A DNA stretch of 64,000 nt. It comes from a virus. Lineage: Duplodnaviria > Caudoviricetes. The stretch spans positions 256,001 through 320,000 of IMG/VR virus record IMGVR_UViG_3300027804_000001. One strand, given 5' to 3'. Position 1 is the first letter of the stretch, and every line of letters begins with the position of its first letter. The position numbers and the translations under genes are program-made. This document shows positions 1-35,804 of the stretch, piece after piece. The notes below the pieces were generated by a model that was not told where the DNA came from, searched no databases, and saw nothing but the letters and a program-made list of their open reading frames with translations.

Positions 1-276
1 ATTCTTAGCAAAATAAACTTTTAAAATATTGGCAGTGTCAACTGGTTGTATTATTTGAACCTCGACAGGAACCTTAACCTCAATAGGGACTTCAACCGGT
101 ACTTCTACTTCAACTTCCACCTCCACACTATCATGTACAGGGTATGGTATTGAATCAACAATTCTAGTATATTCTACTCTATTTGGCATTATACCCTTAG
201 GATTACAATACTCCAATACCGCAATTAATAATAAGATTAAAATTATTATATTTCTTAATTCAAATATTTTTTTCAT
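1..276 (-). CDS. Membrane-anchored protein with Val/Glu/Pro repeat (3'-truncated by window edge)
   Basis: Translated by hand from ATG 276: MKKIFELRNIIILILLLIAVLEYCNPKG...DSVEVEVEVEVPVEVPIEVKVPVEVQII...; open to base 1; missing from the ORF track because it has no stop. Confidence 0.8.
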   Translation of the reverse strand, partial: MKKIFELRNIIILILLLIAVLEYCNPKGIMPNRVEYTRIVDSIPYPVHDSVEVEVEVEVPVEVPIEVKVPVEVQIIQPVDTANILKVYFAKN

Positions 277-277
277 T

Positions 278-706
278 TTATTTAACAAGTAAAACCGATG
301 TGGCAATCACACCAACGAAAGTTCCAACTTTATAAAGAAAGGTCTTTCTTCTTTGTCCTTTTAGTTCTTTTAATAAACTATTAGACTTTTCTCTTTCAAG
401 TGAAAATTGTTCGTCTTTTTTTATTATTATCGTTTCTAAGTTTGCAATCTTTTGATCTTTAAGGGTGTCTTTTTGTTTTAAAAGAGATATTTGTTCGTCT
501 TTTAATTTTATAACATTACCCAATTCTTTAACTTCGGATATTGCTCCGTCACCCTTAATTAAATCTTTGATAACCAACTTAGCGATTGGAACTTTTAGTG
601 GTACTATCGTGTCCTGAGCCACCGATTTCTCGTCCTTCGTAACGGTCTGAGAAAAACTTAGCAAGGTCACTAAAAGTAAACTCGTTAACAGCATCAACTT
701 TTTCAT
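278..706 (-). CDS. Exported coiled-coil protein with signal peptide and C-terminal TM (spanin-like partner candidate)
   Basis: MKKLMLLTSLLLVTLLSFS/Q signal peptide, heptad-rich middle, RRK followed by hydrophobic C-terminus. Confidence 0.6.
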   Translation of the reverse strand: MKKLMLLTSLLLVTLLSFSQTVTKDEKSVAQDTIVPLKVPIAKLVIKDLIKGDGAISEVKELGNVIKLKDEQISLLKQKDTLKDQKIANLETIIIKKDEQFSLEREKSNSLLKELKGQRRKTFLYKVGTFVGVIATSVLLVK

Positions 707-968
707 TTGTGTTATTTTTAATAATTGTTATGTTTTTTGTTACCTTATCGATGTCACCATCAATGTTATTAATTTCTTTATCTATTGTTATAATTTTATC
801 GGTTATTTTTTCATTTAAAACGTATACCGAATCTATTTCTTTTTGAATAGAGTCAATCTTGGTATTATACCCATTTATGTCGGTTTTTATACCTTTCATC
901 TGAAAAATGGAATAACCTGCTAAAACTACAATTAACAATAAAAGAACGTCTTGTTTATTTAGTTTCAT
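579..968 (-). CDS. Type II membrane coiled-coil protein (i-spanin-like candidate)
   Basis: N-terminal TM VLLLLIVVLAGYSIF then long heptad repeat; overlaps the next gene by 128 nt. Confidence 0.6.
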   Translation of the reverse strand: MKLNKQDVLLLLIVVLAGYSIFQMKGIKTDINGYNTKIDSIQKEIDSVYVLNEKITDKIITIDKEINNIDGDIDKVTKNITIIKNNTNEKVDAVNEFTFSDLAKFFSDRYEGREIGGSGHDSTTKSSNR

Positions 969-983
969 AATGATAGATTTATA

Positions 984-991
984 TATAAATA
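984..991 (-). promoter_or_regulatory. TATTTATA motif (candidate late promoter)
   Basis: 15 nt upstream of ATG 968; same motif recurs before most structural genes. Confidence 0.5.
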
Positions 992-1006
992 GTTTAAAAA
1001 AAATAA

Positions 1007-1023
1007 GGGGATTAAAAATCCCC
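1007..1023 (-). terminator. Intrinsic terminator after clpP
   Basis: GGGGATT-TTT-AATCCCC stem-loop followed by a T-rich tract on the minus strand. Confidence 0.75.
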
Positions 1024-1051
1024 TCATTTATTTCTACCCATTTTACCTATC

Positions 1052-1723
1052 TTACTTCTTTCTAACAATTTCATCAATAATACCGTATTTGACTCCGTCC
1101 TCAGCAGATAACCAAAAGTCCCTTGTTGCGTCTCTCATAACCTCTTCTGCGGGTTTTCCACAATACCCACCTAAAAGTTCAAACAATCTATCGTTTTTCT
1201 TTTTCCACCATTTCATGGTAATTTCTGCATCTTGGATATTACCCACGGCCCCACCTGATGATTGGTGTAACATGATTTCTGAATCCTCCAACGCCCCTCT
1301 TTTACCTTTAGTACCTGCACCTAACAATACAGAACCCATAGACGCAGCCATACCGGTACAAATTGTACGAATGTCAGATTTGATATATTCCATTACATTG
1401 ACCATAGATAGTCCTGACTTTACAGAACCACCCGGACTGTCAATGTGCATAGTAATATCATTATAATCCAAACTATCAAGAAACATCAATTGGGCTTGAA
1501 CAATTGTGGACATGTGGTCATTTACCTCACCAGCAACCCAAATAATTCTTTCCATCATTAATCTACTGAAAACATCCATAACTGTAACATTCATCTGTCT
1601 TTCTTCAAGAATGTATGGTGTTAAACTGTTTTCAATAAGGTTGTTATACTGATGTAATTTTAAAGAACCAATTCCTTTGTCTCTTGCATAAAGATTAAAA
1701 TCTTTAATATCTTTTAATTCCAT
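1052..1723 (-). CDS. clpP: ATP-dependent Clp protease proteolytic subunit
   Basis: DVFSRLMMERII, IDSPGGSV, GMAASMG (Ser), MLHQ (His), RDFWLSAE (Asp); start moved to ATG 1723 (MELKDIK). Confidence 0.95.
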   Translation of the reverse strand: MELKDIKDFNLYARDKGIGSLKLHQYNNLIENSLTPYILEERQMNVTVMDVFSRLMMERIIWVAGEVNDHMSTIVQAQLMFLDSLDYNDITMHIDSPGGSVKSGLSMVNVMEYIKSDIRTICTGMAASMGSVLLGAGTKGKRGALEDSEIMLHQSSGGAVGNIQDAEITMKWWKKKNDRLFELLGGYCGKPAEEVMRDATRDFWLSAEDGVKYGIIDEIVRKK

Positions 1724-1744
1724 ATAAGTATGTTTTGTTTTTAA

Positions 1745-1776
1745 CAAATATAAACCAAAAAAAACCAAAAACCAAA
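1745..1776 (-). promoter_or_regulatory. Bacteroidota-type sigma70 promoter
   Basis: TTTG (1773-1776), 20-nt spacer, TATATTTG (1745-1752): exact TAnnTTTG -7 element. Confidence 0.7.
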
Positions 1777-1777
1777 A

Positions 1778-4120
1778 CTAAGATATTTTTGTGGTAATAA
1801 AATCTATTGAGGAAATATTATCGTCCTTTTTAATCATAATAATATTATCCGACCAATTACGAATTAGAGAGTTGTGAGAAATAACTAATATATGTTCAAA
1901 ATAATTTTTGATTTTCTTGAAAAATTCACCTACCATATCCAAATTCTCATCCGCAATCTTACCAAAAACTTCGTCCATTACCACAATATTTGGTTTAGGT
2001 AATGACGATATTTTAGTCAAAACACTACGAAGTGCCAATGATGATATTGTTCTTTCATAACCCGAACCAGCATTTAATGGTTTAACTACCCTCGTTTCCG
2101 TATCAATCATGACAAATTCAACTTCATTCTTATCATTCACATTTAACTCTAAAATAAAGTGACAACTATCAACCAACAAACGATATAATTCTTGATTTAA
2201 CAATGGTATCATGTTTTTCATGATAACTTTTGAAATCCCATTTTTACCATATATTGTCAGATAAATTTTAAACACATTCAATAACTCTTCTTCTGATTTA
2301 ATTTTCTTTATTAAATCATCGTTTGTTAATATTTTAGTTTTCATAACCTCAATATTTGTGTTATGTTTTTCAATTGTTGTATTTGCAACTCTTATGTCGG
2401 CGTTTGCGGTTTCAATCTTAGATCTTAATGCAATTATTTCCGCATCGATTTTTTGATTATGTTCTAATTTCTTTTTATTATTTTCATAATTGTTTAATTT
2501 ACCTTGTTTGGTGTCAATCTCTAATTGTTTTTGTTCAACCTCTAATTCGTATCTTGCCTTACGAAGTTTATTTTTTTCGTAAGTATCAAATTGAGTTTTT
2601 AGATTTTCAAATGATTCTGATTGTTCTTTTAATTTATCAAAATCTTTTTGATTCTCTTCTTTATCTTTTAGAATATTTTCTATTTCTTTTTTTAATTCTT
2701 CAATTTCATCAGTGTGGTCAACTTCATCCAATGCTCTTTTACATGTTGGACAAATTGTACCTTCTGTTAATTGTTTAATTAATTTTTCTTTTTCAGTCTT
2801 TTCGTAATTACACACAACATCAAACCCTTGAAGTTCTGCCATTTGTCCTTTTAATTCCTTATGGTCATCTTCATTATAGTATTGAGTTGGTTCTGCCACA
2901 TCAATCCCATCTGCGTTTTTTTGACTCAGATTTCTTTGTGAAATTAAATCATCAATCTCACGTTGTAAAAGTGTCGGGTTTGTTTTTATTAATTCTTGGT
3001 CGACATCATTATTTTTAGAACTAAGAACTTGTTCTTTTTTCTCTTCTAATTTTTTTAAATTTTTATCTAGTTTACCAAGTTCATTTGTAAGTCTTTCTAT
3101 TTCATTTTCAGAATTGGTGATTGAATCTTTATAATTTGTATTATCAATTTCTAATTGAGTTATGTTGTATGTATTAGATACAAGTTTCCTACTCCAATCA
3201 TTGTACAAGTTTTTTGCAACTTCTTCTTTCGCCCTTAAACTTTCTAAACCCATAAATTTAGTTAGAATTTGACCTCTGGCAGTTGGTTTGGACTCTATTA
3301 ATTGTTCTAAATTGTTTCCCGTTGTCATGATTGTTGATAGGAAATCTTCTTCACTACCGATTGCAGACGAAATAAATGATTCGGTTTCTCTTCTCTGTTC
3401 TCCTGTTAAATTTTCTACTGCACCGTCTTCTTTTCTTTTATAGAACTCAAGTTTGTTAGTGACATTGTATTCACCCGATTTACTTTTTTTACGAGTAAGT
3501 TTTCTTTCAATAACATAATCTTCACCATCAATTGTTATTTCACCTTTAACTAACACCTCATCTTTGTCAGTAAATTTATTGAAAATTTCACCGGCGGTTT
3601 TAGTCTTTGTTGTGGAATTAAAAAATAAAAACATCAACAAATCAACAGATGAAGTTGATTTACCACCAAAGTTTTTTGGTGTTGATTCTATAACGGTAAT
3701 ACCATCTAATGTAGTATAATCAATTTCGTTGTTATCCCCAAATGATAAGAAATTTGAGAATTCTATCCTCTTTACAAACCATTTATTATATCGAACTTTA
3801 TTTTGATTTGTTTTATCAATCTCACCATTTACTTTATTGTCAAGTCTATCTACTAACTCCCATTTTGTTTGGATACTGTTTTCCTTAATGAAATCCTTCA
3901 TTAATTTTTTTTGGTATTCATGGTCTAAAATATTGTCAGATGCCTCTAAAGATTCTAATACAATATCTGATTTATTAGTAAGACTTTTAGTAATAACCTG
4001 AATAGATTTGGTTTTATATTTGTCCTGAAAATATGATTTAACTCTTCTGATTTTTTCAGGAGTAAAATTTTCAGGTGTATCTTCCCAAGTTACTTTTATA
4101 AATGGATTATTATATTTCAT
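1778..4120 (-). CDS. sbcC: SbcC/Rad50/T4 gp46-like SMC ATPase with ~110-aa N-terminal extension
   Basis: EFSNFLSFG, Walker A NFGGKST, coiled coils, Zn hook CPTC, variant signature GSGYE, Walker B VVMDE, H-loop ISH. Confidence 0.9.
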   Translation of the reverse strand: MKYNNPFIKVTWEDTPENFTPEKIRRVKSYFQDKYKTKSIQVITKSLTNKSDIVLESLEASDNILDHEYQKKLMKDFIKENSIQTKWELVDRLDNKVNGEIDKTNQNKVRYNKWFVKRIEFSNFLSFGDNNEIDYTTLDGITVIESTPKNFGGKSTSSVDLLMFLFFNSTTKTKTAGEIFNKFTDKDEVLVKGEITIDGEDYVIERKLTRKKSKSGEYNVTNKLEFYKRKEDGAVENLTGEQRRETESFISSAIGSEEDFLSTIMTTGNNLEQLIESKPTARGQILTKFMGLESLRAKEEVAKNLYNDWSRKLVSNTYNITQLEIDNTNYKDSITNSENEIERLTNELGKLDKNLKKLEEKKEQVLSSKNNDVDQELIKTNPTLLQREIDDLISQRNLSQKNADGIDVAEPTQYYNEDDHKELKGQMAELQGFDVVCNYEKTEKEKLIKQLTEGTICPTCKRALDEVDHTDEIEELKKEIENILKDKEENQKDFDKLKEQSESFENLKTQFDTYEKNKLRKARYELEVEQKQLEIDTKQGKLNNYENNKKKLEHNQKIDAEIIALRSKIETANADIRVANTTIEKHNTNIEVMKTKILTNDDLIKKIKSEEELLNVFKIYLTIYGKNGISKVIMKNMIPLLNQELYRLLVDSCHFILELNVNDKNEVEFVMIDTETRVVKPLNAGSGYERTISSLALRSVLTKISSLPKPNIVVMDEVFGKIADENLDMVGEFFKKIKNYFEHILVISHNSLIRNWSDNIIMIKKDDNISSIDFITTKIS

Positions 4121-4643
4121 ATGAATTCTCGAGTTCCCAAACTTCGTTAATTAAATTGTAGGTTTCTACATGTTCTCTTTTAAATGATAACCAATCTTCA
4201 AGTTCATCACTATTATTTGGTTGAAATCTTGTTCTATATACTTTATCTGGATTACGTATTGTGTCAGGCCTAACTACAATCATCTGTGTAAAATCTTTAT
4301 TTGACCTAACGTATGTGTTAATTTTTGCCGATGGGTTCTCTCTTAATTTATTATAAAAATAATATTCCTCTAACCAATATTTTTCTTTTCTTATTGGTAT
4401 GTTTAAAGTTTTAAATGATAAACCTGAAATTAAAGAATACTTTTCATTAGACCAAAAATCACCATTCCAACCACCTCGTTCAACTTCTACACCCAAAAGA
4501 GTTTCAGTTGCACCTGTCAAATCGATTACTCTCATTTCTGGTGGGGTTTCATTCAATTGAATTTTAAAATGTGTTTTATAAAAATCAATAACGGCATTTC
4601 TAACTGGTTCATCATTGTAACTTGTTCCTCTTAAATTTGGCAT
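4110..4643 (-). CDS. Putative restriction-endonuclease-fold (PD-(D/E)XK-like) protein
   Basis: IDL...LGVEVERGGW resembles the D...ExE/K catalytic arrangement; inference only. Confidence 0.4.
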   Translation of the reverse strand: MPNLRGTSYNDEPVRNAVIDFYKTHFKIQLNETPPEMRVIDLTGATETLLGVEVERGGWNGDFWSNEKYSLISGLSFKTLNIPIRKEKYWLEEYYFYNKLRENPSAKINTYVRSNKDFTQMIVVRPDTIRNPDKVYRTRFQPNNSDELEDWLSFKREHVETYNLINEVWELENSYEI

Positions 4644-4648
4644 TAAAC

Positions 4649-4960
4649 TTATTTTAATCTACTCTCCTCAAAAAACTCTATTATGGCATTTAATGCCCAA
4701 ACTGAACCGGCGGTAAACATTCCATCAAAGAAAATACCTAAAGTCCAGTGTACGTTAAGAACCGGACTTGTTACACCACCTAAAACGATTGACATAAAGA
4801 AACCAACCCATGTTGATGTACACAACGTGCAACTAATTAAATCACCAAAAAATTTAGAATGTTTTTTAATAAATTCTCTCGTAGATTCAAAAATGGTACC
4901 CCAAACAAGTATTGATGTCATACCATACGCAATCATAATCCATAAAAATAATATATCCAT
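4649..4960 (-). CDS. Small membrane protein, DUF1360-like
   Basis: Three hydrophobic segments and LISCTLCTSTW (CxxCxSxW) motif. Confidence 0.6.
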   Translation of the reverse strand: MDILFLWIMIAYGMTSILVWGTIFESTREFIKKHSKFFGDLISCTLCTSTWVGFFMSIVLGGVTSPVLNVHWTLGIFFDGMFTAGSVWALNAIIEFFEESRLK

Positions 4961-4977
4961 AATGATTAAATTTTACT

Positions 4978-5009
4978 AGAATATAAGGAAAAAAATTTAC
5001 AAAGACAAA
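4978..5009 (-). promoter_or_regulatory. Bacteroidota-type promoter variant
   Basis: TTTG (5006-5009), 20-nt spacer, TATATTCT (4978-4985) upstream of ATG 4960. Confidence 0.5.
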
Positions 5010-5552
5010 CTATTCAGAATAAAGACTTCCTAAATCACTATTCTTCATGTATTTTGCTTTACTAAACTTATCTAAAGATTGATTTATCTTATCGAGTTCT
5101 TTTTTTAATTTTTCGTTTTCTTTTTTAAGTTCATCAATTTCTTTGGTGTCAACAACTTCTTTAATTGTTGGTACTTCTATCTTAACTTCTTTGATTACTT
5201 CTTTTGTTATTATTTGTGTATCTCCCTTAATTTGAACGGGTACCTCTTTAATAACCTCAACAATTTTTTCTACCGGTACTTCTTTAATGACCTCTTTAAT
5301 CACCACTTTCTCAACGGGTACTTCCTTTATTACCTCTACTATTTTTTCTACGGGTACCTCTTTTATTACTTCTTTTTCAATAATTTTTTCTTTGGTTGAT
5401 TTAATAGGGGTATCAGGATATTTTAAAAATGAGAATCCTCTATTGAATGTTTCTTTCGCAAGTTTTTCAACGTCATCAATATTATTTAATTGACAATATT
5501 GTATAAATTCATCATCTAAATTAAGTGTCTTCTTTTTTTTGAAATTACTCAC
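5010..5552 (-). CDS. Protein with alveolin/articulin-like KEVPVEKIVEV repeats and C-terminal coiled coil
   Basis: GTG start overlapping the upstream stop; repeats EVIKEVPVEKIVEVIKEVPVEK... Confidence 0.75.
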   Translation of the reverse strand: MSNFKKKKTLNLDDEFIQYCQLNNIDDVEKLAKETFNRGFSFLKYPDTPIKSTKEKIIEKEVIKEVPVEKIVEVIKEVPVEKVVIKEVIKEVPVEKIVEVIKEVPVQIKGDTQIITKEVIKEVKIEVPTIKEVVDTKEIDELKKENEKLKKELDKINQSLDKFSKAKYMKNSDLGSLYSE

Positions 5553-6243
5553 TTTCTGTTTGTTTACTCAAATAATCTCTAATAAGTCTAAGATCCGTCA
5601 TTCTTTCGTTGTGCTTTTCTTCAGTAAAAAAACTAAAGTATGCTATAAAGTTTTTATCGGGATGTGATTCAATTGTTATTTCATCTTGAATAAATTCTCT
5701 TTCATGAAAAATTTGTATATCGTCTTCATATATCGATATATTTAAATCATTACTAATTAACTGAACCCAACTATCACAAGCACCACTATTTGACCATCTA
5801 CCTGTGACATCTATCCATTTTTTAGGGATTATTGGAAATAACATTTGATTGTCTTTTCTACAATAATCTGTTTGATTGGTTACTAACGGATTAACAACTA
5901 CAAATTTATTTTTGTATTTATCCATTACCAAATCATAATCTTTTGATGTCATCATACAATCATCATTCCACAATAGTAAAAACTCACCTGTGGCATCTTT
6001 TGATGTTGCATTAACATATAAATTTAGGTTTCTATAAAAATGTCTCTCAGATACATACAACTTAATAAATGGTTTATCTGTAATGTATTCTTTTGTTTTT
6101 TGAACAGTTTCAACATCGTCATCATCCATTGCAACCAATATTTCTAAATTATTTAAATCTGAACAATTTTCAATTAGGCTGTTTGTAGATTTAACAAACA
6201 AATCATATCTTTTTCTTGTTGGGAATATTATACTTATTTTCAT
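5545..6243 (-). CDS. GT-A fold glycosyltransferase (GT2-like)
   Basis: KISIIFPTRKR, EILVAMDDDD, FLLLWNDD (DXD-like) motifs. Confidence 0.85.
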   Translation of the reverse strand: MKISIIFPTRKRYDLFVKSTNSLIENCSDLNNLEILVAMDDDDVETVQKTKEYITDKPFIKLYVSERHFYRNLNLYVNATSKDATGEFLLLWNDDCMMTSKDYDLVMDKYKNKFVVVNPLVTNQTDYCRKDNQMLFPIIPKKWIDVTGRWSNSGACDSWVQLISNDLNISIYEDDIQIFHEREFIQDEITIESHPDKNFIAYFSFFTEEKHNERMTDLRLIRDYLSKQTESE

Positions 6244-6244
6244 A

Positions 6245-7063
6245 TTATCCTAAATTTAATAATTCTTCTTTTTCATTTTCAATATCTGTTATATCATCAA
6301 TTGAGAAATGTAAAAACGGTTGTTCATTTTGCAAATCGTGAAAAGTATATTCATCGGATTTGATATCATAAATACCATATCCATGATGTTTTACGGTTTC
6401 ACCAAAATTCTGTTGGATTAAAGAACCAACCATTATTCCTTTACCTCCACCAGGTAATTTAAATTGTTGTCTTTTGTGAATATCACCACAAAGAAGTAAA
6501 TCCAAATCAACAAAATTTAATCTATCATAACCATCTTCAAATTGATATCCTATATCGGTTGACATTCCTTGGATTACTCCGTGAAATAAACCAATATGGA
6601 ATTGACCTTCTTCTTTTTTAAAGTCAGGTCTTTCATTATGTTGGTACAATGAATAAACAACCCAATTTATATTATCATCTTTATAAACACCACTATCTTT
6701 TAGATAGGTGATGTTTTTATTGTCAAGTAATTCAACTATTGGTGTTATACTATCTATACGTTGTGTGTTGTTCTCTAAAAAATCATGATTACCTGGAATT
6801 ATAATTGTCTTACCATAACTTGATAATTGATTCAAAAACCAACTTGTTAATAACAACTGTTCGTTTGAAATATTAATCTTTTGGTGTGCAATGTCACCAG
6901 CAATAACAATACGAATTTCATCCCATCTAATACCTTCAGATGTCCATTTTGCACTATGTTCTTTAATCTCTTCAATTAATTTTTCAAATTGTTTTTTGTA
7001 CAGTTCGTGTAATTGAATTGTTCTGATATGGATATCAGCGATATGTATAAGTTTTTTTACCAT
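6245..7063 (-). CDS. sbcD: SbcD/Mre11/T4 gp47-like metallophosphoesterase nuclease (short C-terminus)
   Basis: HIADIH, AGDIAH, PGNHD, LFHG, GDIHK motifs. Confidence 0.9.
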   Translation of the reverse strand: MVKKLIHIADIHIRTIQLHELYKKQFEKLIEEIKEHSAKWTSEGIRWDEIRIVIAGDIAHQKINISNEQLLLTSWFLNQLSSYGKTIIIPGNHDFLENNTQRIDSITPIVELLDNKNITYLKDSGVYKDDNINWVVYSLYQHNERPDFKKEEGQFHIGLFHGVIQGMSTDIGYQFEDGYDRLNFVDLDLLLCGDIHKRQQFKLPGGGKGIMVGSLIQQNFGETVKHHGYGIYDIKSDEYTFHDLQNEQPFLHFSIDDITDIENEKEELLNLG

Positions 7064-7916
7064 AATTAATATATTTTGAAAGGTCTAAATCCATTACAAT
7101 TTTATTTACTTTTTGTGGTACTTTATATTCCACATATGAACCATCTTCTTTCAATAAGACAATCACACACCCTAATAATTTTAGGTTTTCATATTTGGTA
7201 CCTTTTAACATCTTTAATAACAATCTCGCATACAATGGTAATTGTAAATAATAATGACCTAATGCCGTATCGTGATATTCATTAAATGGTGAGAACATTT
7301 TACCCGTGTAATGTTGTACTTCAAAGTTCTTTGGTTGATTTGTTTTCCAATCTGTAATTACCAAACCAAAATCGGTTTGTTCTTTATTTAACATCAACCA
7401 ACATTTATCGGGTTGTCCTGTGTAACCCAATTCATTATCACCAAGAACAATTTCGGTATCAAGTAAAACCGCACCTCTTTCTTCCATTAATGTTAAAAAT
7501 TCTTTACCGGCTTTAATCATGTTATTACTCCTGGTCAACTGAGTTTCATCACATTCGAAAATTGGTTGTCTCACATCTTTGTAATTACCATTTCTATTAA
7601 CGGCTTCAGTCTCAAGTTCAAAGTGAACTCTACTACCCATGTTTGTAGCATAACTACCTGCTTGTCTCCATTGTTCTTGTAATTCGGCGGCGGCTTCAGG
7701 GTCACCATTGGACATTCTCAATGAGGTTCCTTCCGCATCAAACGCTTTATGAAATTTCTTGATTAATTTGGAAACAGATGGAAATGTTTTTCTAAGAACA
7801 CCATCAATATCTCTCATATAATAAATGTGTTCTTCCTCCACAAATGTTATATCAAGTTCATTTCTTCTTTTTTCTAATAATTCATTTATCTCTTTTGAGA
7901 TTTCTACTAAATTCAT
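7035..7916 (-). CDS. PD-(D/E)XK superfamily exonuclease
   Basis: GSRVH, TE, GQPDK, DWKT, YxxQLxLY motifs. Confidence 0.85.
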   Translation of the reverse strand: MNLVEISKEINELLEKRRNELDITFVEEEHIYYMRDIDGVLRKTFPSVSKLIKKFHKAFDAEGTSLRMSNGDPEAAAELQEQWRQAGSYATNMGSRVHFELETEAVNRNGNYKDVRQPIFECDETQLTRSNNMIKAGKEFLTLMEERGAVLLDTEIVLGDNELGYTGQPDKCWLMLNKEQTDFGLVITDWKTNQPKNFEVQHYTGKMFSPFNEYHDTALGHYYLQLPLYARLLLKMLKGTKYENLKLLGCVIVLLKEDGSYVEYKVPQKVNKIVMDLDLSKYINYGKKTYTYR

Positions 7917-8854
7917 TAATCTAATTGTTTTATTTTATATTCACTTAAATCACCTTTCAAATCGGCAATATCTTTATCTCCTTCTAATTTTACTATCCAT
8001 ACTTTACCCATTAATTTACCACAATTTAACTTGTGGAATAATTTTTCAGCATCAGACCAAGCATCAGGATCCAAGACTATAATAATCTTTTTAGCAGAAT
8101 TATAAAGTCTATTGAATAAATTTTGAGTCATATATTTTCCCAACATTGGTATTGAGTTGTCAAGAAATATGGAATCAAACGCACCTTCAACAATATAAAT
8201 TGGTTCATCCCAATTTATTAAATGTTCATTCCACAATAAACTTTCCTTATCAATTTCAGGATTTTTATACTTCATTTTGGTTCTTGTAAGAAAAGAACGA
8301 GCAATAAAATAATTTAAGTTTTTATTTATATCATAAGATGGAATGATAATTCTATTTTCATATAATCCTTGGTAACAAAATCCAATATTATATTTCTCAA
8401 TCATTTCATCTGTTATGTTTCTACTTTTTATATAATTCCAAGCCTGTTTAAATTGTGGTGTCAATTTAAGTCCAAGACTTACATTTTTAAAAGGAATAAA
8501 TTCTTTTGGTAATCTTACTTGTTTATAAACCCTTTTTGGTGAATCAAAATCTTCGGGTTTTAATAATTGATATTTTTTTAATTGTTTAGGGGTTCCGTAT
8601 TTTTTAATTAGTTTAAATAAAGATCCGTGTGTTTCATGTGTTTCCGCACAAACCCAACATTTAAAAACATTTTGTTTATAGTTTACCTCAAGATTTCCCT
8701 TTCCATCTCCGTGGTCTAAACCTTTTATATCGTAAGAACAAACAGGACAGTCAAAAGACATCTGTCCTCGGTAATCATTGTGCATTTTATAATCACCTAG
8801 AATATCTTCTAGTATTTCAATTACACCCGAAAAGTCTACCTCTTGTTCAGTCAT
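7916..8854 (-). CDS. DNA primase (Zn finger + TOPRIM)
   Basis: CPVC...CWVC, IVEGAFD, LDPDA; true start probably ATG 8854 (MTEQEVDF), not 8935. Confidence 0.9.
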   Translation of the reverse strand: MTEQEVDFSGVIEILEDILGDYKMHNDYRGQMSFDCPVCSYDIKGLDHGDGKGNLEVNYKQNVFKCWVCAETHETHGSLFKLIKKYGTPKQLKKYQLLKPEDFDSPKRVYKQVRLPKEFIPFKNVSLGLKLTPQFKQAWNYIKSRNITDEMIEKYNIGFCYQGLYENRIIIPSYDINKNLNYFIARSFLTRTKMKYKNPEIDKESLLWNEHLINWDEPIYIVEGAFDSIFLDNSIPMLGKYMTQNLFNRLYNSAKKIIIVLDPDAWSDAEKLFHKLNCGKLMGKVWIVKLEGDKDIADLKGDLSEYKIKQLD

Positions 8855-8885
8855 AGTTAGAAATAATATAACCAAAAATTTTTGC

Positions 8886-8922
8886 AAAAAAAAATCCCCC
8901 AGAGACACCACCCTCCAGGGGA
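8886..8922 (-). terminator. Strong intrinsic terminator
   Basis: UCCCCUGGAG / CUCUGGGGGA 10-bp stem followed by U9. Confidence 0.85.
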
Positions 8923-8960
8923 ACCAACTAAACATGTATTTCTACACGTCCCGTCCTACT
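8886..8960 (-). ncRNA. Candidate ~75-nt small RNA (GAAA-tetraloop hairpin + terminator)
   Basis: ACGUGUA-GAAA-UACAUGU (8949-8932) then terminator; TATTTATTA motif immediately upstream (8962-8970); GC-rich in an AT-rich spacer. Confidence 0.5.
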
Positions 8961-8998
8961 TTAATAAATATATCCTATTCTACTTTATAAAAAAAATA

Positions 8999-9616
8999 TC
9001 AGTTGCCGGATTTTTCTGATTTAATCATATTGATGTATCCAATCACTGCGGTTGCCGCATCCGCCATATCGTAATTCTCTTTTTTAAGGTTACCAGTTTT
9101 ACCATATAACCAATTTACATCAGAACAAACGGCGTTAACATGTTCCCATATTACGTGTTTCTTATCGATATCTTTTGGATAACCACCAAACAATACGTTT
9201 CTATTTTTATCGTTCTTTCCGACTAAATCAGGAAACGCAAATTTTCTTGCATTATAAGTTGAAATGAAGGTTGGTATAATACCTAAAATATCATAACAAT
9301 TTTTCAAAATCAAAGTGTTATATCTTAATAGGGTTCCCACTGTATAAATGTTATTAGATTGTAATAATGGTTCTTCTATTATTACACGAGTAATCCCCAT
9401 ATCTTTATAACCCTCAAGATGTTTCTTGAACGCATCAGCCTTTTTTATTAATTCCTCTATTTTGTCTTCAGGCTGAGGTTTTATTTTTGGTGAGAAATGA
9501 GTTAACTCTAATAATTTGGATCCTGTTATATCAAACAGTGCCCACCCAATTGTTTTGGTTGAAATATCCAATCCCAAAATTTTTGGCTTGTTCTTAAATT
9601 TAATATCTATACTCAT
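8999..9616 (-). CDS. ruvC: RuvC-like Holliday junction resolvase
   Basis: ILGLDIS, VIIEEP, DMADA catalytic acidic motifs. Confidence 0.85.
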   Translation of the reverse strand: MSIDIKFKNKPKILGLDISTKTIGWALFDITGSKLLELTHFSPKIKPQPEDKIEELIKKADAFKKHLEGYKDMGITRVIIEEPLLQSNNIYTVGTLLRYNTLILKNCYDILGIIPTFISTYNARKFAFPDLVGKNDKNRNVLFGGYPKDIDKKHVIWEHVNAVCSDVNWLYGKTGNLKKENYDMADAATAVIGYINMIKSEKSGN

Positions 9617-9654
9617 ATCAAAATATATAAGTAATATTTTTTGATAAGTAAATA

Positions 9655-11832
9655 TTAAAAATCTAATCTAATAGAAAAAACTTGTGTACCACTTCTTTTT
9701 ACGGGAACCGCTGTTTTGGTTTTAACTAACACATCTTTATTTGAGTCCAATAAAGCAATTTCTGTAATGTATTTGTTACCTGAAGTATATGATGGGTTTT
9801 GTGTTTCAGTAAATTGTGTTGCGGGTAAGTTTACTAAGAAGTTCATTTCTTCAACATCACTTGCTCTTACTAATCTAACACTACCAGGGAATGGTTGTTC
9901 GTCACCAAATTGTGCCTCAGTTGTTGCACCTGTGGTTAACAAATAATCATTACCCATAAAACTTTCTAAATCAAATAAACTTGCACTTGTAATATCGGAT
10001 TTAGTAATTGTAAATGTGGTTCCGGTTAAATTTGCTGCGGTTAAATAAGATGTTCCGTTTCCACCTGCTTGTGTTGTATAATCAATAATCTTCCACAATT
10101 CAGGATTAGGTAAACCGTCTAAATCTTGTGTGGTTTCTTGTATTAAAACATAAAAACGTTTTGGTTTGAATTGTGTTAAGAAACCATCTGCAGTCAAATA
10201 GTTAAATGTATTACCACTAAATTTAACATTTATATTAGAAGGATATGTAACCGTTTGATATTTTGTATCACCCGTATTATTAACTGATAACTTTACATAA
10301 TAGTTACTTGGCAACGTATTAAGTGGTGATGTTGTTCCGTTTGTTTCTGACAACATGTACGTCACATAAAATGTTTGACCTGTTGTTCCTGATATGATTG
10401 AATTTGATACCACATCATTGCTTGGAACCGCGGTAACTTTCGGTGCACCTAAAGTAAATTTTCTATTACTTCTATAATCTAAAATTGCAACAAGTTCTTG
10501 GTCATCAAAAACTACAATTTTATTTTTAGGAAATACTTTACCAACTTTATTACCTGATTCATCAATCAAATATCTAAATAACAATTCATGTCTTTCACTT
10601 TTGGTTGATTTCACATAATAATCAGTTGTGTCCATATAGAAAATGGCACCATATGTTGTACCTGTGTTTCTATGATAATAAATAAATGGAATATAAACCT
10701 CAAAATATTGAGTATCACTTATCCCTTCATCATCTCTATCGTATGCTATTGAGATATCATCACCGGTTGTTCCTGTTTTATAACTGATGTAATCATCATA
10801 CTTATAAAATCTTTCAGGGTCGTTAATTAAATCACCTAATTCTGAATAATGTATTATTGCAACACATCTTTGTTCTTTTGGTGATACTTCAATTAATTCG
10901 TTAAATGAGTTTAAAAATCCTGTACCAATTTTTGTTGAACTAAAACTACCGATTGTTCCGCCTGTTAAGTTTTCGAATGTCTGTCCTGTTGATGTATACC
11001 CTAAAAATTCTTTTGTTGAAACGAATCTATTACTTGTGTATCCAGATAAACTTTCATCTAATGCTCCAACATCTGCACCAATTGGTTTTTTGTCCCATAC
11101 CGTATTCAATGTCCAAGCATTTTGTTGGTCCATTGGGTCAATCGGATTTGGTATACATGAACCGTTAACTTCGTTTGGATATTCTAATTCACAATTATTA
11201 CAAATTACTTGTATGTTTCCAGACAAAGCACTAAAATTCGGTGTCTTTCTATCTAAATTAATTGTGTTTCCTGATATACTTTCAATTCTATAAATTAAAC
11301 TACTTGAATTTCCAGTAACTGTTGGGGGGATACCACAAAATTCATCAAACACAATTGTTATAAATTCACAATTATTAAAACTGTCACCAGTTAAAACTTG
11401 TATTGAGGTTCCTCCTGTTAATGATGTTACACTAATTGATTGTGTTTCACATTGTATTGTTGTAGATTTAATACCAGGGTCCCCTGTACAATCCTCAAAT
11501 TCGTTGTACTCTGAAATGAATCCAGCAGGACCCATTACATTTCTAATTGTATCAGTTGAAGATTGTTCTATTGGTGTGCCATATGTGGTTCCACTTGTCG
11601 ACGCATCTATTTTGTATGGATATTTTATACCAGTTTCTTTATCAAATGGAGCTAATACTTTTTGATGAGTTGTCTGACCAGTTAATGATGAATAAATGGA
11701 ATTATAGTCAAATTCAGAATCTCCAATTTGAAAATACTCAATATTGAAATTACCTTTAGCAATAGAGTTTCTACCCTTTTGGGTTATTCTTGCTGATAAA
11801 AATTCCGAATTGTTACTATCTAAAAAACTCAT
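9655..11832 (-). CDS. Tail/baseplate structural protein, tail-collar-fibre-like termini
   Basis: N-terminal ITQKGR..IA.G...FQIGDSE and C-terminal ITEIALLD....LV.....P..R resemble collar-fibre proteins. Confidence 0.55.
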   Translation of the reverse strand: MSFLDSNNSEFLSARITQKGRNSIAKGNFNIEYFQIGDSEFDYNSIYSSLTGQTTHQKVLAPFDKETGIKYPYKIDASTSGTTYGTPIEQSSTDTIRNVMGPAGFISEYNEFEDCTGDPGIKSTTIQCETQSISVTSLTGGTSIQVLTGDSFNNCEFITIVFDEFCGIPPTVTGNSSSLIYRIESISGNTINLDRKTPNFSALSGNIQVICNNCELEYPNEVNGSCIPNPIDPMDQQNAWTLNTVWDKKPIGADVGALDESLSGYTSNRFVSTKEFLGYTSTGQTFENLTGGTIGSFSSTKIGTGFLNSFNELIEVSPKEQRCVAIIHYSELGDLINDPERFYKYDDYISYKTGTTGDDISIAYDRDDEGISDTQYFEVYIPFIYYHRNTGTTYGAIFYMDTTDYYVKSTKSERHELLFRYLIDESGNKVGKVFPKNKIVVFDDQELVAILDYRSNRKFTLGAPKVTAVPSNDVVSNSIISGTTGQTFYVTYMLSETNGTTSPLNTLPSNYYVKLSVNNTGDTKYQTVTYPSNINVKFSGNTFNYLTADGFLTQFKPKRFYVLIQETTQDLDGLPNPELWKIIDYTTQAGGNGTSYLTAANLTGTTFTITKSDITSASLFDLESFMGNDYLLTTGATTEAQFGDEQPFPGSVRLVRASDVEEMNFLVNLPATQFTETQNPSYTSGNKYITEIALLDSNKDVLVKTKTAVPVKRSGTQVFSIRLDF

Positions 11833-11855
11833 ATATTTTTAATAATTTAAACTGA

Positions 11856-13145
11856 TTAAGCACTACCTCCTCCTCCAGAACAATTAGTAATATATTGAAC
11901 GTCATCAACACCGCCGAAATCATTTACAAGTATTGCGTAATATGGTGGATTATTTGTATTAAATGTATTATCGGATGAAACGGCGTAATATTGATCACCT
12001 CCCTGCCATACCGTATATTCGGTATCAATATAAACCGTTGTATTTAACATATTTGAAATCGTACTAGAGGTACTATAGAATTGTGCACTTGTTACCTGAT
12101 TCTGATTACAATGACCATTACTTAAAGCCGCAGGATTAGATCGGAAAAATCCATATAAAGGTGGTGTTGGTGTTTGTGTCATCGTTGGCGTTATGGTTGG
12201 TGTTGGTGTTATTGCATTACATTGAACTACGTTATTAATATAACCTGTAGGTCCAATTGTCATTGCATATTTTGTACTGTTAGCCAATACCGCATAATAT
12301 GTTCCGTCTCCAACAAATGTTGTTACACAAAGATTTGAATCGTATGCATAATCACCATTTGCAGGTATTGTATGACCACTTAAATAAAGAGTTACACTAT
12401 TTGTTGCAATTTCAGATTCATACATTGCACAAGGTGCTGCTGTTCCACCAAATGTTGATCCGGTGTGTACTAACATTGAAATTCCTGGTGTTGGTGGCGG
12501 TGGTGGTGGAACAATTACATAATCTTCACATGTACCTGTTACTATTGTACCATCTAGTTTATTAGAACAATCACCTGTTCCTGGATCATTTGCAACATCA
12601 TTAGTATTCCAATAACTTCCCATTGTGTAATAATTTCCACCTGAAGACCAGAATATTTTTCCAACATTTGCCGCTCCACCCTCAATAGGTACGGAATAAC
12701 ATATAGTTGCATCATCACATCTTAATAACTCATACCAATATTGGAAATTTGGTGTAATTGTTGGTGTGACTGTAGGTGTTGGTGTTGGATCTCCCGGTGT
12801 TAATGTTGGTGTTATTGTAAATGTTGGTGTTATTGTAAATGTTGGTGTAATAGTTGGTGTAATAGTGTTAGTTATAGTAGGGGTTGGGGTTGCACCTCCA
12901 CCACCTGTTATAGTGATACATTGAGTTGTTCCTGCACAACTTCCACCATCAACCTTAACAAATAATGAAACAACATTATCAGGAATTCCTGTTATTACTT
13001 TTGGAAATCCGGATACTGCTTGTGAGGTTACTAAACTTGAGCAACCACTACCACAAGACGCACCCGTACAACCAGATATTGATACGGTTTGACCTGTTAT
13101 ATCTGAACCAACTGTTCCTAAATCTACTGTAGCGTTAAATGCCAT
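11856..13145 (-). CDS. Modular fibre/adhesin protein with Thr-Pro linkers
   Basis: Cys-rich N domain, two TPT tracts, poly-Pro, two similar Y.D...T...G...YY modules. Confidence 0.7.
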   Translation of the reverse strand: MAFNATVDLGTVGSDITGQTVSISGCTGASCGSGCSSLVTSQAVSGFPKVITGIPDNVVSLFVKVDGGSCAGTTQCITITGGGGATPTPTITNTITPTITPTFTITPTFTITPTLTPGDPTPTPTVTPTITPNFQYWYELLRCDDATICYSVPIEGGAANVGKIFWSSGGNYYTMGSYWNTNDVANDPGTGDCSNKLDGTIVTGTCEDYVIVPPPPPPTPGISMLVHTGSTFGGTAAPCAMYESEIATNSVTLYLSGHTIPANGDYAYDSNLCVTTFVGDGTYYAVLANSTKYAMTIGPTGYINNVVQCNAITPTPTITPTMTQTPTPPLYGFFRSNPAALSNGHCNQNQVTSAQFYSTSSTISNMLNTTVYIDTEYTVWQGGDQYYAVSSDNTFNTNNPPYYAILVNDFGGVDDVQYITNCSGGGGSA

Positions 13146-13149
13146 ATTC

Positions 13150-13157
13150 TATAAATA
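13150..13157 (-). promoter_or_regulatory. TATTTATA motif
   Basis: 4 nt upstream of ATG 13145. Confidence 0.5.
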
Positions 13158-13175
13158 TTAATTCTTTTATTTTTA

Positions 13176-14078
13176 TTATACAGAACACATTAATAATGGT
13201 GATAATGGTACTTGAGAGTGTAATGCAACACTAGCTTCTGTTGGAGTTGGGTCCATTAGATATAATTCTTCTGAATTATAGTTAAATCCATTATCTATAA
13301 TTGGGCTTGTATAAATTTCACCTATTACAGATATTCCACAAATTCTAAATTGAAGTGTGTTTCCACTACCTCCTGTCCATCTACCTTTTATCGTGTAAGG
13401 ACAATTTGATACTAATATATCGATATATCCAGATTTTGCAGTTGAAGTTGTTAGTTCATCTAACAAATCACCCTCAACGCCTCCGTTACTTGTTACTAAC
13501 AATTGACCACCTGTTTTATTATTTGTTGACCAATATAATCTTACTGTTGGTTCTCCAGTTGGTGTTATGGTTGGAGTATATGTTGGTGTTATTGTAAATG
13601 TTGGAGTAATAGTTGGGGTTGGTGTTGGAGTCGTGTTAGTTTGTACCGCAGAACCACCACTAAAATTACAAATAGGTGTATGAGTTGGTGTAATCGTTGG
13701 TGTTGGTGTAAGATTTGAAATAGCAGAACCACCACTAAAATTACAAATAGGTGTGTAAGTTGGAGTAACTGTTGGAGTTGGGGTAAAACATTTGGTATAG
13801 AAATCTAATTCATGTATATAAATGTTTTCAATAATATAACTATTGGTTACCGTGTCCAATATTTTAAACCAATATTGTTTTCCGTATGGGTTTGGGTCTA
13901 CTTCTACATCAAAATCAATTGTGATTGAGGATGTTCCACCAGCAAAAACACTACCATATTGGGCACCCCAAGTTGGATTTTCTTGTTCAGATACCGAACC
14001 CGGTGTTCTACCGTTTTGATAGAATAATTTAAAATTATTTGGTGAAACTATATTTTTTATCTCAATTACTAGACCCAT
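13176..14078 (-). CDS. Modular fibre/adhesin protein with Thr-Pro stalk
   Basis: TPT tract with two PICNFSGGSA nodes between N and C domains. Confidence 0.7.
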   Translation of the reverse strand: MGLVIEIKNIVSPNNFKLFYQNGRTPGSVSEQENPTWGAQYGSVFAGGTSSITIDFDVEVDPNPYGKQYWFKILDTVTNSYIIENIYIHELDFYTKCFTPTPTVTPTYTPICNFSGGSAISNLTPTPTITPTHTPICNFSGGSAVQTNTTPTPTPTITPTFTITPTYTPTITPTGEPTVRLYWSTNNKTGGQLLVTSNGGVEGDLLDELTTSTAKSGYIDILVSNCPYTIKGRWTGGSGNTLQFRICGISVIGEIYTSPIIDNGFNYNSEELYLMDPTPTEASVALHSQVPLSPLLMCSV

Positions 14079-14116
14079 ACCTATATAAATACCAATAATA
14101 AAAATTTAAATAAAAA

Positions 14117-14136
14117 ACCCCTTTAAATAAAGGGGT
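14117..14136 (-). terminator. Intrinsic terminator
   Basis: ACCCCTTT-ATTT-AAAGGGGT stem followed by a T tract on the minus strand. Confidence 0.75.
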
Positions 14137-14164
14137 CTTTTAATAATTAAAAAATCTTTATTTG

Positions 14165-14704
14165 TTATGGAGCAAAACCACTATTAATTGTGATTGCTAC
14201 AGTATCAGGTGAAGTACTACCAATTGTTGTTGTATAAGTTGTTGCACTTCCAGATGAATTTGGACAAGTAGTTGTATTATCGGCGCCATTCATAACATAA
14301 CTTTGTGCTGTTGAGAAGGTTACTGTGTCCCCCTCCGTTAATCCTGTAATTGCACCTAAATCGGAACATATATTTTCATTAGTATTGTAGAAGTTGAAAT
14401 TTCCACCACCATTTATATTGTATATAAGCATTATTGAACCACCGTTAACATCTTTAGCAAAAACACTCAAGGCTATTGTTGGTTTAGTCCAAGGTTGTGA
14501 GGTGGTACATGTTCCTATACTTGCTACCGTCCCACCTGTTATGTTACTATTTGGAATTGTTACTTCATAACCCGCTTCTAATGTTGCTTTTGCAACACCA
14601 GATTCAATTAATGTTGTAATACCTCCGCTAGTTGTTCCCGAGATGTCAAAAGGTCCGGTATCTGATCCGGCCCCTGAAACTGTGAAAATTACGTTATATG
14701 CCAT
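14165..14704 (-). CDS. Short two-domain adhesin-like protein (no stalk)
   Basis: C domain is clearly paralogous to the C domain of 14769-16925. Confidence 0.7.
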   Translation of the reverse strand: MAYNVIFTVSGAGSDTGPFDISGTTSGGITTLIESGVAKATLEAGYEVTIPNSNITGGTVASIGTCTTSQPWTKPTIALSVFAKDVNGGSIMLIYNINGGGNFNFYNTNENICSDLGAITGLTEGDTVTFSTAQSYVMNGADNTTTCPNSSGSATTYTTTIGSTSPDTVAITINSGFAP

Positions 14705-14768
14705 TGTTTTTTATTTTTATCTTTTTATATAAATATATCATTATTCAAAACAAATCTGTAGTTTATTT

Positions 14769-16925
14769 TTATGGTATGGCACCCGTGTCAATTCCTAAAT
14801 AGACATAATCATTACCAGAACTTATTCCTATGGTATGTACATAATTAACATTTCCACTAGGTGCGGTACAATTAGAACTAGAACCCGTCATTGAATACCC
14901 AATGTTGGTACCGAATGTAACTTGGTCGGACTGACTTAAACCTGTTATTTGTCCATAATAATCACAATTTCCATTTAATGGTCCATTATAAAAAGTATTA
15001 TATGAACCACCATTTATTTGATAGGTTATTTCAATTGAGTTGTATGAATTATCATAATCCTGTGCATTTACATAAAGTGTAACATAATTTGCAACACTTA
15101 CTATTTCTGTTACACCACTATTTGTAACACAACCATTCGCATCTGTTACCTCAACACAATATCCACCCGCACATAGAGTACCTACTGATTGTGTTGCTGT
15201 TGATTCAGTTACTCCTGTTATTGTTGTCACCAACGTGCCTCCACATGTTGTATATGGTGCTGTTGAGTCGAGATATAATTTATAAGTTTTTGGCCATACA
15301 CCACCAGTTGAACTCATATCAAGAGTACCATTACAACCACCTGTATCATTTGCTGTAATCGTAATTGAAGCTGATTGTGCACTTGGTTGAGTTATTGTAA
15401 CAGAAATTCCTTTTACTGCACCATTACTAGCTTTAACATTAAGGGTATAACCTGTTGCAATTAAACTACTAAATGTCTTAGGTAATGCAAAATAATTTAC
15501 ACCATCCAACGATACCGTATAAGCTCCACCTGAACCACCTGATGCACTATTAACTGTTAATGAACCGTCTGAACCACCATTACATGATACATTTGTTTGT
15601 GTATAACTAGCACTAATCTCAGTATAAGTTGGTGTCACCGTTGGTGTGAACGTCGGTGTTATTGTAAACGTCGGCGTTATTGTTGGTGTAATTGTATAAG
15701 TAGGTGTTATAGTTGGTGTAAACGTAGGCGTTATTGTTGGTGTAATAGTAAACGTAGGTGTAATAGTTGGTGTAATAGTTCTAGTTGGTGTAATGGTAAA
15801 TGTTGGCGTTATTGTAAACGTCGGTGTTATTGTAAACGTAGGTGTTATAGTTGGTGTAATTGTTTTAGTTGGAGTAATAGTTGGGGTAGGAGTTGGTGCA
15901 ACATAAGTTGTACTTACTGTGAAGTTACAAGCCGGTGTTGGTGTTGGTGTAATAGTAAATGTTGGTGTAATTGTTGGTGTAACAGTTCTAGTTGGTGTTA
16001 ATGTAAACGTTGGTGTAATTGTATAAGTCGGAGTTATAGTTGGTGTAATAGTTGGTGTAAATGTAGGTGTGATAGTTGGTGTTATAGTTTGACTTACTGT
16101 TTGAGTAGGTGTAATAGTATAAGTTGGTGTAATAGTATAAGTTGGTGTAATAGTCTGACTTACAGTTTGTGTAGGTGTAATAGTATAAGTTGGTGTAATA
16201 GTTGGAGTAGGTGTAGGTGCCACATAAGCAGTGCTCACTGTGAAATCACAATCCGGAGTTAACGTTGGTGTAACTGTATAAGTTGGAGTAATAGTTGGTG
16301 TTATAGTATAAGTTGGTGTAATAGTAAATGTCGGTGTGATAGTAAACGTTGGGGTTACTGTTACTGTTGGAGTGATTGTAAGTGTAGGTGTAATAGTTGG
16401 TGATAACGTTTGTGTTGGTGTAATAGTATAAGTTGGTGTTATGGTATATGTAGGAGTAACTGTCGGTGTAGGTGTTGGTGCAACATAAGTTGCATTAACA
16501 ACAAAGTCACAAGCCGGAGTTAACGTTGGTGTTATTGTATATGTTGGTGTTAAAGTTTGTGTGAACGTCGGTGTTATTGTAAACGTCGGCGTTATTGTAT
16601 AAGTCGGTGTTATTGTTGTTGTAGGTGTAATTGTGTATGTTGGTGTAACTGTTAACGTTGGTGTTAAAGTTGGTGTTGGGGTTGGTGCGTAGAATGTCTC
16701 ATTAGTAAAACATGATTCATTGTAAAGAATCACATTTACTGTACTATCAGGTACATAAACATCAACACCCGGATTTGTTGTTAAGTCGTTATAAGTAATT
16801 CCTGTTGCATTATCATTTGTACTAACTCTTGTGGCATAATTAGATGGATTTACATCATCATAGTAAACCGAATATGGTCCTGGTGATGTTCCTCCTGTTA
16901 TTAATATGTGAAAATATCTTGCCAT
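14769..16925 (-). CDS. Long fibre/adhesin: N domain, ~355-aa Thr-Pro stalk, SprB-like repeats, head domain
   Basis: (TxTxTP)n; [14 protein letters not shown]...YTVSLDG...ITQP and VEVTDANGC SprB-type signatures. Confidence 0.8.
15621..16685 (-). repeat. Coding Thr/Pro tandem repeat ([16 protein letters not shown]) with 3 Cys nodes
   Basis: 12/18-nt degenerate tandem units in frame. Confidence 0.95.
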
Positions 16926-16937
16926 TTATATTAATTA

Positions 16938-35684: not shown

Positions 35685-35706
35685 AAACCCATCCGAAGAT
35701 GGGTTT
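35685..35706 (-). terminator. Intrinsic terminator with C(UUCG)G tetraloop
   Basis: AAACCCATC-TTCG-GATGGGTTT followed by TTT. Confidence 0.9.
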
Positions 35707-35714
35707 AATGTTGT

Positions 35715-35804
35715 GTCTTGATATTCACCCCCTGTATTCTCAAAACCTGGAAGCTCAAGGTACGCCTTGACGACAGTAGTACTTTGAGGGAGTCTCCCAT
35801 TATC
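35715..35804 (-). ncRNA. Candidate structured RNA in the nrdA 3' region
   Basis: 42/90 G+C (35711-35800); nested stems ACUCC/GGGGU, CUCAAAG/UUUUGAG, UCAAGG-CGUA-CCUUGA. Confidence 0.4.

Follow-up and report, generated by a model that had tools for sequence, protein, structure and literature searches.

A candidate small RNA family between the RuvC-like resolvase and primase genes of uncultured freshwater jumbo phages

To our knowledge, very few small RNAs of virulent phages have been described and almost none for phages of Bacteroidota, hosts that lack the usual RNA chaperones Hfq and ProQ. The OOP RNA of phage lambda is a transcript of 77 nt with its own promoter and intrinsic terminator, and it adjoins the replication genes. 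In enterobacteria, DapZ and MicL are derived from the 3' ends of mRNAs, are transcribed from an internal promoter up to the terminator of the mRNA, depend on Hfq and possess a free seed. The conserved hairpin loops of RNAIII and the Rsa RNAs of Staphylococcus aureus, including the terminator loop, pair with target RNAs. The put RNA of phage HK022 is a cis-acting antitermination RNA without a terminator of its own that modifies the very polymerase by which it was made.

The element described here, located in the spacer between a RuvC-like resolvase gene and a DNA primase gene, shares individual traits with each of these systems. Like OOP, it would be a short phage RNA of similar size with its own, here predicted, promoter and terminator beside replication genes. 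However, OOP is antisense to the end of cII and pairs with cII, whereas the phage RNA here is sense and lies in a spacer. An opposite-strand overlap of the OOP type does not exist at this locus, where all neighbouring genes are on the strand of the RNA, and the two RNAs have no similarity in sequence or structure. As in DapZ and MicL, promoter elements, here predicted, extend into the end of the coding sequence upstream, and the terminator is common with the upstream operon. In contrast to these RNAs, the element probably resides in phages of hosts without Hfq (Bacteroidota), its 5' end shows no conservation, and conserved positions are found in a helix and in the terminator loop instead of a free seed. 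A short conserved motif in the loop of a terminator hairpin whose stem sequence is free to vary recalls RNAIII and the Rsa RNAs, but their loops are C-rich and pair with ribosome-binding sites, while the loop here is rich in G and U and no target for it was found in the phage genomes examined. Two stem-loops directly downstream of a phage promoter, which is predicted in this case, are also the layout of HK022 put; the second hairpin here is, however, a strong terminator.

A search with Rfam 15 yielded no match at the gathering threshold in the whole window, i.e. the 64,000-nt stretch of DNA that was analysed, and permissive thresholds returned only terminator-like noise. The best sub-threshold match was NsiR1 (RF02399; E = 0.057, 21.5 bits compared to a gathering score of 39), which covers the short hairpin and the terminator. 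This match rests on the terminator alone and NsiR1 is cyanobacterial, and the element is not a member of that family. The statement of the first-pass annotation that no known family could be recognised thus agrees with the Rfam search. The closest analogues are lambda OOP in terms of placement and size and the 3'-end-derived small RNAs with internal promoters in terms of architecture, and the element is a member of neither group.

In the window, the RuvC-like resolvase gene (9616..8999) is located upstream of the element and the primase gene downstream. Matches to RuvC-like resolvases and DNA primases uphold the gene names given in the first-pass annotation. Structural genes, including a tail sheath gene (59298-62150), are found upstream of RuvC, and the primase is followed by genes for an exonuclease, SbcD/SbcC-like nucleases and a ClpP-like protease. 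The element is therefore situated at an operon border, with structural genes and RuvC before it and replication and recombination genes after it. The ATG at 8935, which had been noted as being in frame with the primase, is indeed in frame. The gene itself, however, begins at the ATG at 8854, since 80 IMG/VR homologues align to this shorter form from its first residue onwards.

The related phages are known from freshwater samples, with contigs that reach 335 kb. No cultured phage was matched at the nucleotide level, and the nearest cultured relative of the primase, from a Flavobacterium phage, has 33% identity at the protein level. Start codons are not preceded by Shine-Dalgarno sequences, which fits a Bacteroidota host, and the hosts are probably Bacteroidota. 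Judged by sequence, the RNA is confined to a single clade of uncultured freshwater jumbo phages. ARAGORN detects no tRNA or tmRNA gene in the window. For the 335-kb relative (G002), it calls a tmRNA-like gene with the tag ATSTVAVA, which is a candidate only, as well as tRNAs for Glu, Ser, Met and Thr (86275-86679 and 90452-91590).

The element is read on the minus strand, 8972..8886, the same strand as all genes of the window. In this direction, it is composed of the box TATATTTAT, a variable leader of 8 nt, GACGGGAC, a 7-bp stem with a GAAA loop, UUUAGUUGGU, the terminator and a U9 tract. All parts listed in the first-pass annotation can be found on this strand, namely TATTTATTA (8972..8964, within TATATTTAT), GUAGGACGGG (8959..8950), the 7-bp hairpin with its GAAA loop (8949..8932) followed by a 9-nt linker, the GC stem and U9. 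The box TATATTTAT (8964..8972, minus strand) is a putative -10 or Bacteroidota-type -7 promoter box. The predicted small RNA has a length of about 70-74 nt (8887..8960, minus strand), with a start at 8960-8957 and an end within the U run, both derived from the geometry of promoter and terminator. Its first hairpin (8926..8955, minus strand) combines an invariant lower helix with a variable upper stem that is closed by the GAAA loop (8942..8939). In the lower helix, GAC-G-GGAC (8955..8948) pairs with GUUU-A-GUU (8933..8926) on the minus strand; in the family, this pairing of GACGGGAC with GUUURGUU contains three G.U pairs and one purine-purine (G/R) mismatch.

An unpaired GGU (8923..8925, minus strand), the end of the conserved linker motif UUURGUUGG, leads to the second hairpin. 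This is the G+C-rich stem of an intrinsic terminator with 10-11 bp (8895..8922, minus strand), a near-invariant loop GGUGGUGU (8912..8905, minus strand) and the U9 tract (8886..8894, minus strand; 89% identity in the family). With its 10-11 pairs, loop of 6-8 nt and U9, it has the features of an intrinsic (Rho-independent) terminator, which is kept in all family members, and the site is the top-scoring terminator-like site in positions 1..20000 of the window. The spacer has a G+C content of 31% and the element of 41%, compared to 6-27% for most other spacers, which agrees with the earlier remark that this stretch is richer in GC than other spacers. Two further spacers on the minus strand, 35693-35805 and 44500-44720, have a coding-like G+C content (0.44 and 0.26, respectively) and are probably unannotated coding sequences or the result of mis-set starts; no unusual RNA fold was detected for the spacer at 35693-35805 (z = -0.2).

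A covariance model with 85 positions and 21 pairs was built from 39 non-redundant copies. It finds a single copy in the window with 97.6 bits, while the next best hit with filters switched off reaches 17.7 bits. The element was seen in nearly all of the 80 related primase loci from IMG/VR when the 210 nt upstream of the primase were compared, and the model matches strongly in 76 of them, weakly in L070 and not at all in L059, L069 and L072. It also detects a single copy in each of three relatives of 316, 335 and 251 kb, where a second weak match in one relative comprised promoter and terminator only and was rejected. Since neither the window nor any of these three near-complete genomes has more than one copy, the element does not have the distribution of a repeated or mobile element. 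A pattern scan revealed 13 further contigs with a strong match to the model, all of which carry RuvC and primase close by. For prokaryotes, a strict pattern was applied to one genome each of 185,579 species; none of the 8 pattern hits fits the model, and therefore a host origin was not seen within the limits of this strict pattern.

The first-pass annotation had proposed to look for covariation among related phages, and it was found in both stems. Standard pairs occupy 97.4% of the stem cells in 43 distinct sequences, compared to 68.5% in shuffles and at most 55.5% for slid partners. In the same alignment, which was fitted to the covariance model, 16 of 21 pairs exhibit compensatory changes, and the covariation score is 0.72 as opposed to 0.19 after shuffling. 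An independent run with MAFFT and RNAalifold showed compensatory changes in 14 of 19 pairs. All 9 modelled pairs of hairpin 2 are affected, and each upper-stem pair of hairpin 1 has compensatory changes in 4-16 of the 43 distinct sequences. The lower helix is about 90% identical and its variation is pair-preserving only, while the upper part of hairpin 1 is free to vary in sequence, length and loop.

Mean pairwise identity is highest for the promoter box TATATTTAT (92%), GACGGGA (91%), the loop GGUGGUGU (89%) and UUURGUUGG (87%), and falls to 39% and 42% for the arms of stem 2 and to 43% for the 5' leader. For comparison, primase codons have 84% at positions 1 and 2 and 54% at position 3. As far as can be read from these alignments, this uneven distribution of conserved parts is what a functional RNA would be expected to show. 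The proposal of a free 5' seed is not supported, as GACGGG pairs with the linker in the conserved lower helix and the 5' leader is the least conserved part. The case that would have spoken against a small RNA, namely an unconserved 5' hairpin next to a conserved terminator, was also considered; the 5' hairpin is conserved and covaries, which favours the RNA. The element is thus more than a terminator, as had been suspected, given covariation in both hairpins, motifs conserved beyond the needs of pairing, a putative promoter box and a single copy.

The 75-nt RNA has a minimum free energy of -28.8 kcal/mol (z = -4.2), and only 1 of 200 shuffled sequences folds equally well. The opposite strand of the same region folds poorly (-13.5 kcal/mol, z = -1.7). 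Among the stem cells of the alignment, 167 are G.U and 1 is A.C, with G.U making up about 20% of all stem cells, and the lower helix is predicted under RNA parameters but lost under DNA parameters (-28.8 compared to -9.5 kcal/mol). For these two reasons, the structure is attributed to the RNA of the sense strand, which is rich in G (35% G, 14.5% C).

Upstream of the box, conserved blocks were identified in an ungapped, box-anchored alignment of 45 distinct sequences. An ATTTTAC block is located 18 nt upstream of TATATTTAT, and AAAAAT..GGCAAC follows 5 nt further upstream. In the window, the former corresponds to a -35/-33-like element (8991..8997, minus strand) that reads ATTTTTT and is weaker than the family consensus ATTTTAC. 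The latter corresponds to an upstream promoter element, AAAAATCC-GGCAAC (9002..9015, minus strand), which overlaps the last RuvC-like codons and may have an UP or activator role. GGCAAC starts 35 nt before the TATATTTAT box, and this distance is fixed in most relatives. In L026, L060 and L071, where other genes have come to lie between RuvC and the RNA, the GGCAAC block has remained with the RNA and is therefore assigned to the RNA module; some members (L004, L010, L011, L049, L063) lack it. An upstream CAACUAAA motif was considered as a pairing partner of the linker, to which it is complementary, but its variants do not compensate. Its fixed spacing indicates a promoter element rather than a pairing partner. 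Taken as a sequence pattern, the layout is that of a promoter with upstream elements, which puts a predicted start at about 8960-8957.

Six copies of the box TATATTTAT are found on the sense strand of the 64-kb window and none on the other strand. Five of the copies are intergenic, and intergenic DNA accounts for 3.6% of the window; the box is about 90-fold enriched in intergenic DNA and strand-specific. The remaining four intergenic copies precede genes, three of them at 12-33 nt and the fourth at 187 nt from the start (59046-59038, 44695-44687, 25861-25853 and 14737-14729, minus strand). By its placement, TATATTTAT is probably the consensus of one promoter class of the phage. Shorter TATATT boxes are found only 2-12 nt before several start codons, e.g. 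that of RuvC at 9616, and the mRNA leaders would then be very short or missing. A second TATATT box (8865..8870, minus strand) precedes the primase ATG at 8854 by 10 nt and is present in nearly all relatives, including L072 and L069, which have no RNA. It likely represents a separate promoter or initiation region of the primase operon. Two metatranscriptome RNA runs cover parts of the region in assembled contigs with a patchy depth of 2-5; one of these contigs spans 8950-9260.

With regard to INDEPENDENCE, gain and loss, several loci carry insertions that part RuvC from the RNA. They comprise about 130 nt in L026, a gene of 274 aa in L060, a frame of 67 aa in L071 and about 880 nt in L118 and L135. 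On the other side, a 407-aa aminotransferase-like gene lies between the RNA and the primase in L091, where the primase has a TATATTT box of its own. Because insertions separate the module from either neighbour, it is regarded as an independent gene. The inserted genes of L091 (12218-13441, 407 aa, aminotransferase-like) and L060 (2021-2845, 274 aa, dehydrogenase-like with an N-terminal GxGxxG motif) were named by eye from the sequence; both look metabolic and each occurs in a single lineage.

In L059 and L072, a gene of 158-173 aa (L059:2390-2911, L072:2433-2909) is found between RuvC and primase in place of the RNA, and all that is left in L059 is the 3' half of the linker and a terminator whose loop is unrelated. 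A remnant of the 3' end of this gene is present in L026-L031 beside an intact RNA. Possibly, this gene is mobile and took the place of the RNA gene. As three related lineages lack the RNA, it is dispensable. Phages with a primase that is 43-53% identical have a gap of about 45 nt between RuvC and primase and no such element, so the RNA is considered an innovation of one clade.

Possible targets and functions were searched for in several ways. In the window, sites complementary to the loop or the linker are not located near gene starts. Of the loop-complementary sites in the 335-kb relative, the two best fall on ACACCAUG start contexts of two genes, but the orthologues in five genomes do not have them, and the candidate was dropped. 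A conserved complementary target site, as expected of a base-pairing regulatory RNA, was thus not found in the phage genomes examined. An attenuator with a leader peptide, or an N-terminal extension of the primase, was rejected as well, since the in-frame extension from the ATG is absent in 29 of 40 distinct relatives. The alternative of an attenuator-like leader raised in the first-pass annotation is accordingly not supported: an open in-frame ATG upstream of the primase exists in only 11 of 40 distinct relatives, no alternative helix covaries and a gene intervenes in L091. An all-against-all scan of alignment columns for an antiterminator gave covarying pairs only in the two known helices, and a conserved alternative pairing that competes with the terminator, as in a riboswitch or attenuator, was not seen.

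The octamer GGTGGTGT occurs 11 times in the window, compared to 1.6 expected, with a strand bias of 10:1 (minus-strand copies at 4773, 8905, 15298, 21671, 37220, 37689, 48745, 53074, 60172 and 61807). Eight of the nine genic copies are GGT-GGT-GTN codons (Gly-Gly-Val), and synonymous shuffles give 5.3 +/- 1.6 genic copies compared to the nine observed, so that a small excess remains. A Chi-like reading is weak, as the excess is mostly a coding effect of these Gly-Gly-Val codons. On the plus strand, dozens of TGGTGT words are found at 12160-20700 with a spacing in multiples of 3; they are the antisense of Thr/Pro-rich repeat genes, which leads to an inverted GC skew in this region. An avoidance of ATC was not detected in the genes that surround the RNA. 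No convincing likeness to Cas12a, Cas13b and Cas9 repeats, as expected of a CRISPR-repeat mimic, is apparent. Neither Shine-Dalgarno mimicry nor a T-box-like pairing with the tRNA 3' end (CACCA) appears to fit all members, and the same holds for a ToxI-like antitoxin and for T7/T4 primase recognition sites.

The element represents a real, conserved family of predicted small RNAs that is absent from the databases searched. It has a conserved structure, occurs on a defined strand and in a single copy, is distributed across the related loci and is independent of its neighbours. We consider it fairly probable that it represents a stand-alone non-coding RNA gene of about 70 nt that has its own predicted promoter and terminator and acts in trans. 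A stand-alone small RNA of an unrecognised family had been suggested from the outset, and the putative promoter box, the covariation, the conserved motifs, the single copy and the lack of an Rfam match all support it. For the transcript ends and the action in trans, we infer the following course. Transcription would start a few bases after TATATTTAT, near 8959, and would end at the strong intrinsic terminator, which the RNA would have in common with the upstream operon of structural genes and RuvC. The RNA would fold into two hairpins whose stems serve as scaffolds, and the functional surfaces would be the invariant, irregular, G.U-rich lower helix and the 8-nt G/U-rich terminator loop. It could then act in trans through a protein that recognises the irregular helix, through pairing of the loop with a C/A-rich RNA, or both.

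The RNA does not appear to switch the primase in cis. It is nevertheless conceivable, if unlikely, that it is a cis-acting leader of the primase operon, in which transcripts from TATATTTAT normally stop at the terminator and regulated read-through reaches the primase and recombination genes, either by a factor binding the conserved helix or loop or by an RNA acting on the polymerase like HK022 put. Its position directly upstream of the primase in nearly every genome is in line with this, but in L091 it is followed by the aminotransferase-like gene and the primase there has its own box, and the distant relatives with adjacent RuvC and primase genes possess no such element. Conservation within the loop is a typical trait of regulated terminators, a pair of hairpins immediately after a promoter is reminiscent of put sites, and the RNA is always just upstream of a gene start. 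However, neither arm of the terminator has an alternative helix that covaries with it, the terminator with its 10-11 bp and U9 is very strong, and the second TATATT box between terminator and ATG is kept in relatives without the RNA. Rather improbable is the reading as nothing but the 3' UTR of the RuvC and structural operon, i.e. a terminator and a protein-binding or stabilising hairpin that have no transcript of their own. The terminator is common to this operon, the upstream elements of the promoter overlap the RuvC stop region, and, as weak evidence, one metatranscriptome contig extends from RuvC to the very beginning of the element. In contrast, TATATTTAT is the best-conserved block, keeps a fixed distance from the helix and marks gene starts elsewhere, and the module retains this box when other genes part it from RuvC.

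The element could also act as DNA, with single-stranded hairpins or a transcribed G-rich region that form a replication origin or a primase-loading signal, modelled on G4-type priming signals or the R-loop origins of T4. This is very unlikely, even though the primase gene is adjacent, the sense strand is rich in G (35% G, 14.5% C) and followed by T-rich DNA, and the loop resembles the G/T-rich templates of T7- and T4-type primases. About 20% of the stem cells are G.U and the invariant lower helix fails with DNA parameters. Moreover, the position following GGTGGTGT, where a T7/T4-type site would have its cryptic base, is occupied by any of the four letters, the GC skew does not turn here, and relatives that lost the RNA keep the primase. 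An ordinary terminator with chance features is hardly credible. The Rfam matches, which are only weak and terminator-like (NsiR1), would fit it, but it is contradicted by the covariation and the motif conservation, and L072, which has no RNA, shows what a plain terminator at the same site looks like.

One lead concerning a possible target emerged from 16S rRNA. GACGGG at the start of the RNA and UGGUGU in the terminator loop are complementary to adjacent 16S hexamers (ACACCG-CCCGUC). In E. coli numbering, GACGGG would pair with C1402-C1407 and UGGUGU with A1396-G1401, including one U.G pair, so that together, the two invariant hexamers cover 12 consecutive bases of one strand of the decoding site in antisense order. 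In E. coli 16S rRNA, GACGGG (perfect match) and the 8-nt loop (one wobble) have no other sites. Of 1680 composition-matched motif pairs, 5 had a joint site anywhere in 16S, 23S and 5S rRNA, as did 7 of 4000 random pairs, but the true chance level is higher than 0.3% since the 16S idea came after several failed guesses. GACGGG is also paired inside the RNA itself, which bears on this lead. The 16S strand is universally conserved and the target of the 1392/1406 primers, and in Flavobacteriia the next hexamer is presumably AAGCCA and not ACACCA. The string was located by a text search in the searchable text of a paper on Algibacter. That the RNA is a split antisense directed at the decoding centre of the small ribosomal subunit appears highly improbable. 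If true, the RNA would bind the immature or mature 30S subunit at the decoding site and might block host ribosome maturation or shield the decoding site, which would represent a novel mode of viral contact with the translation machinery.

The family has unusually clean comparative support, with dozens of divergent sequences, free stems and frozen motifs. The frozen loop and the G.U-rich helix are precise handles for pull-downs and mutagenesis. As it lies at the border between the structural operon and the genes for replication and recombination, it offers a good starting point for work on RNA-based control in giant phages.
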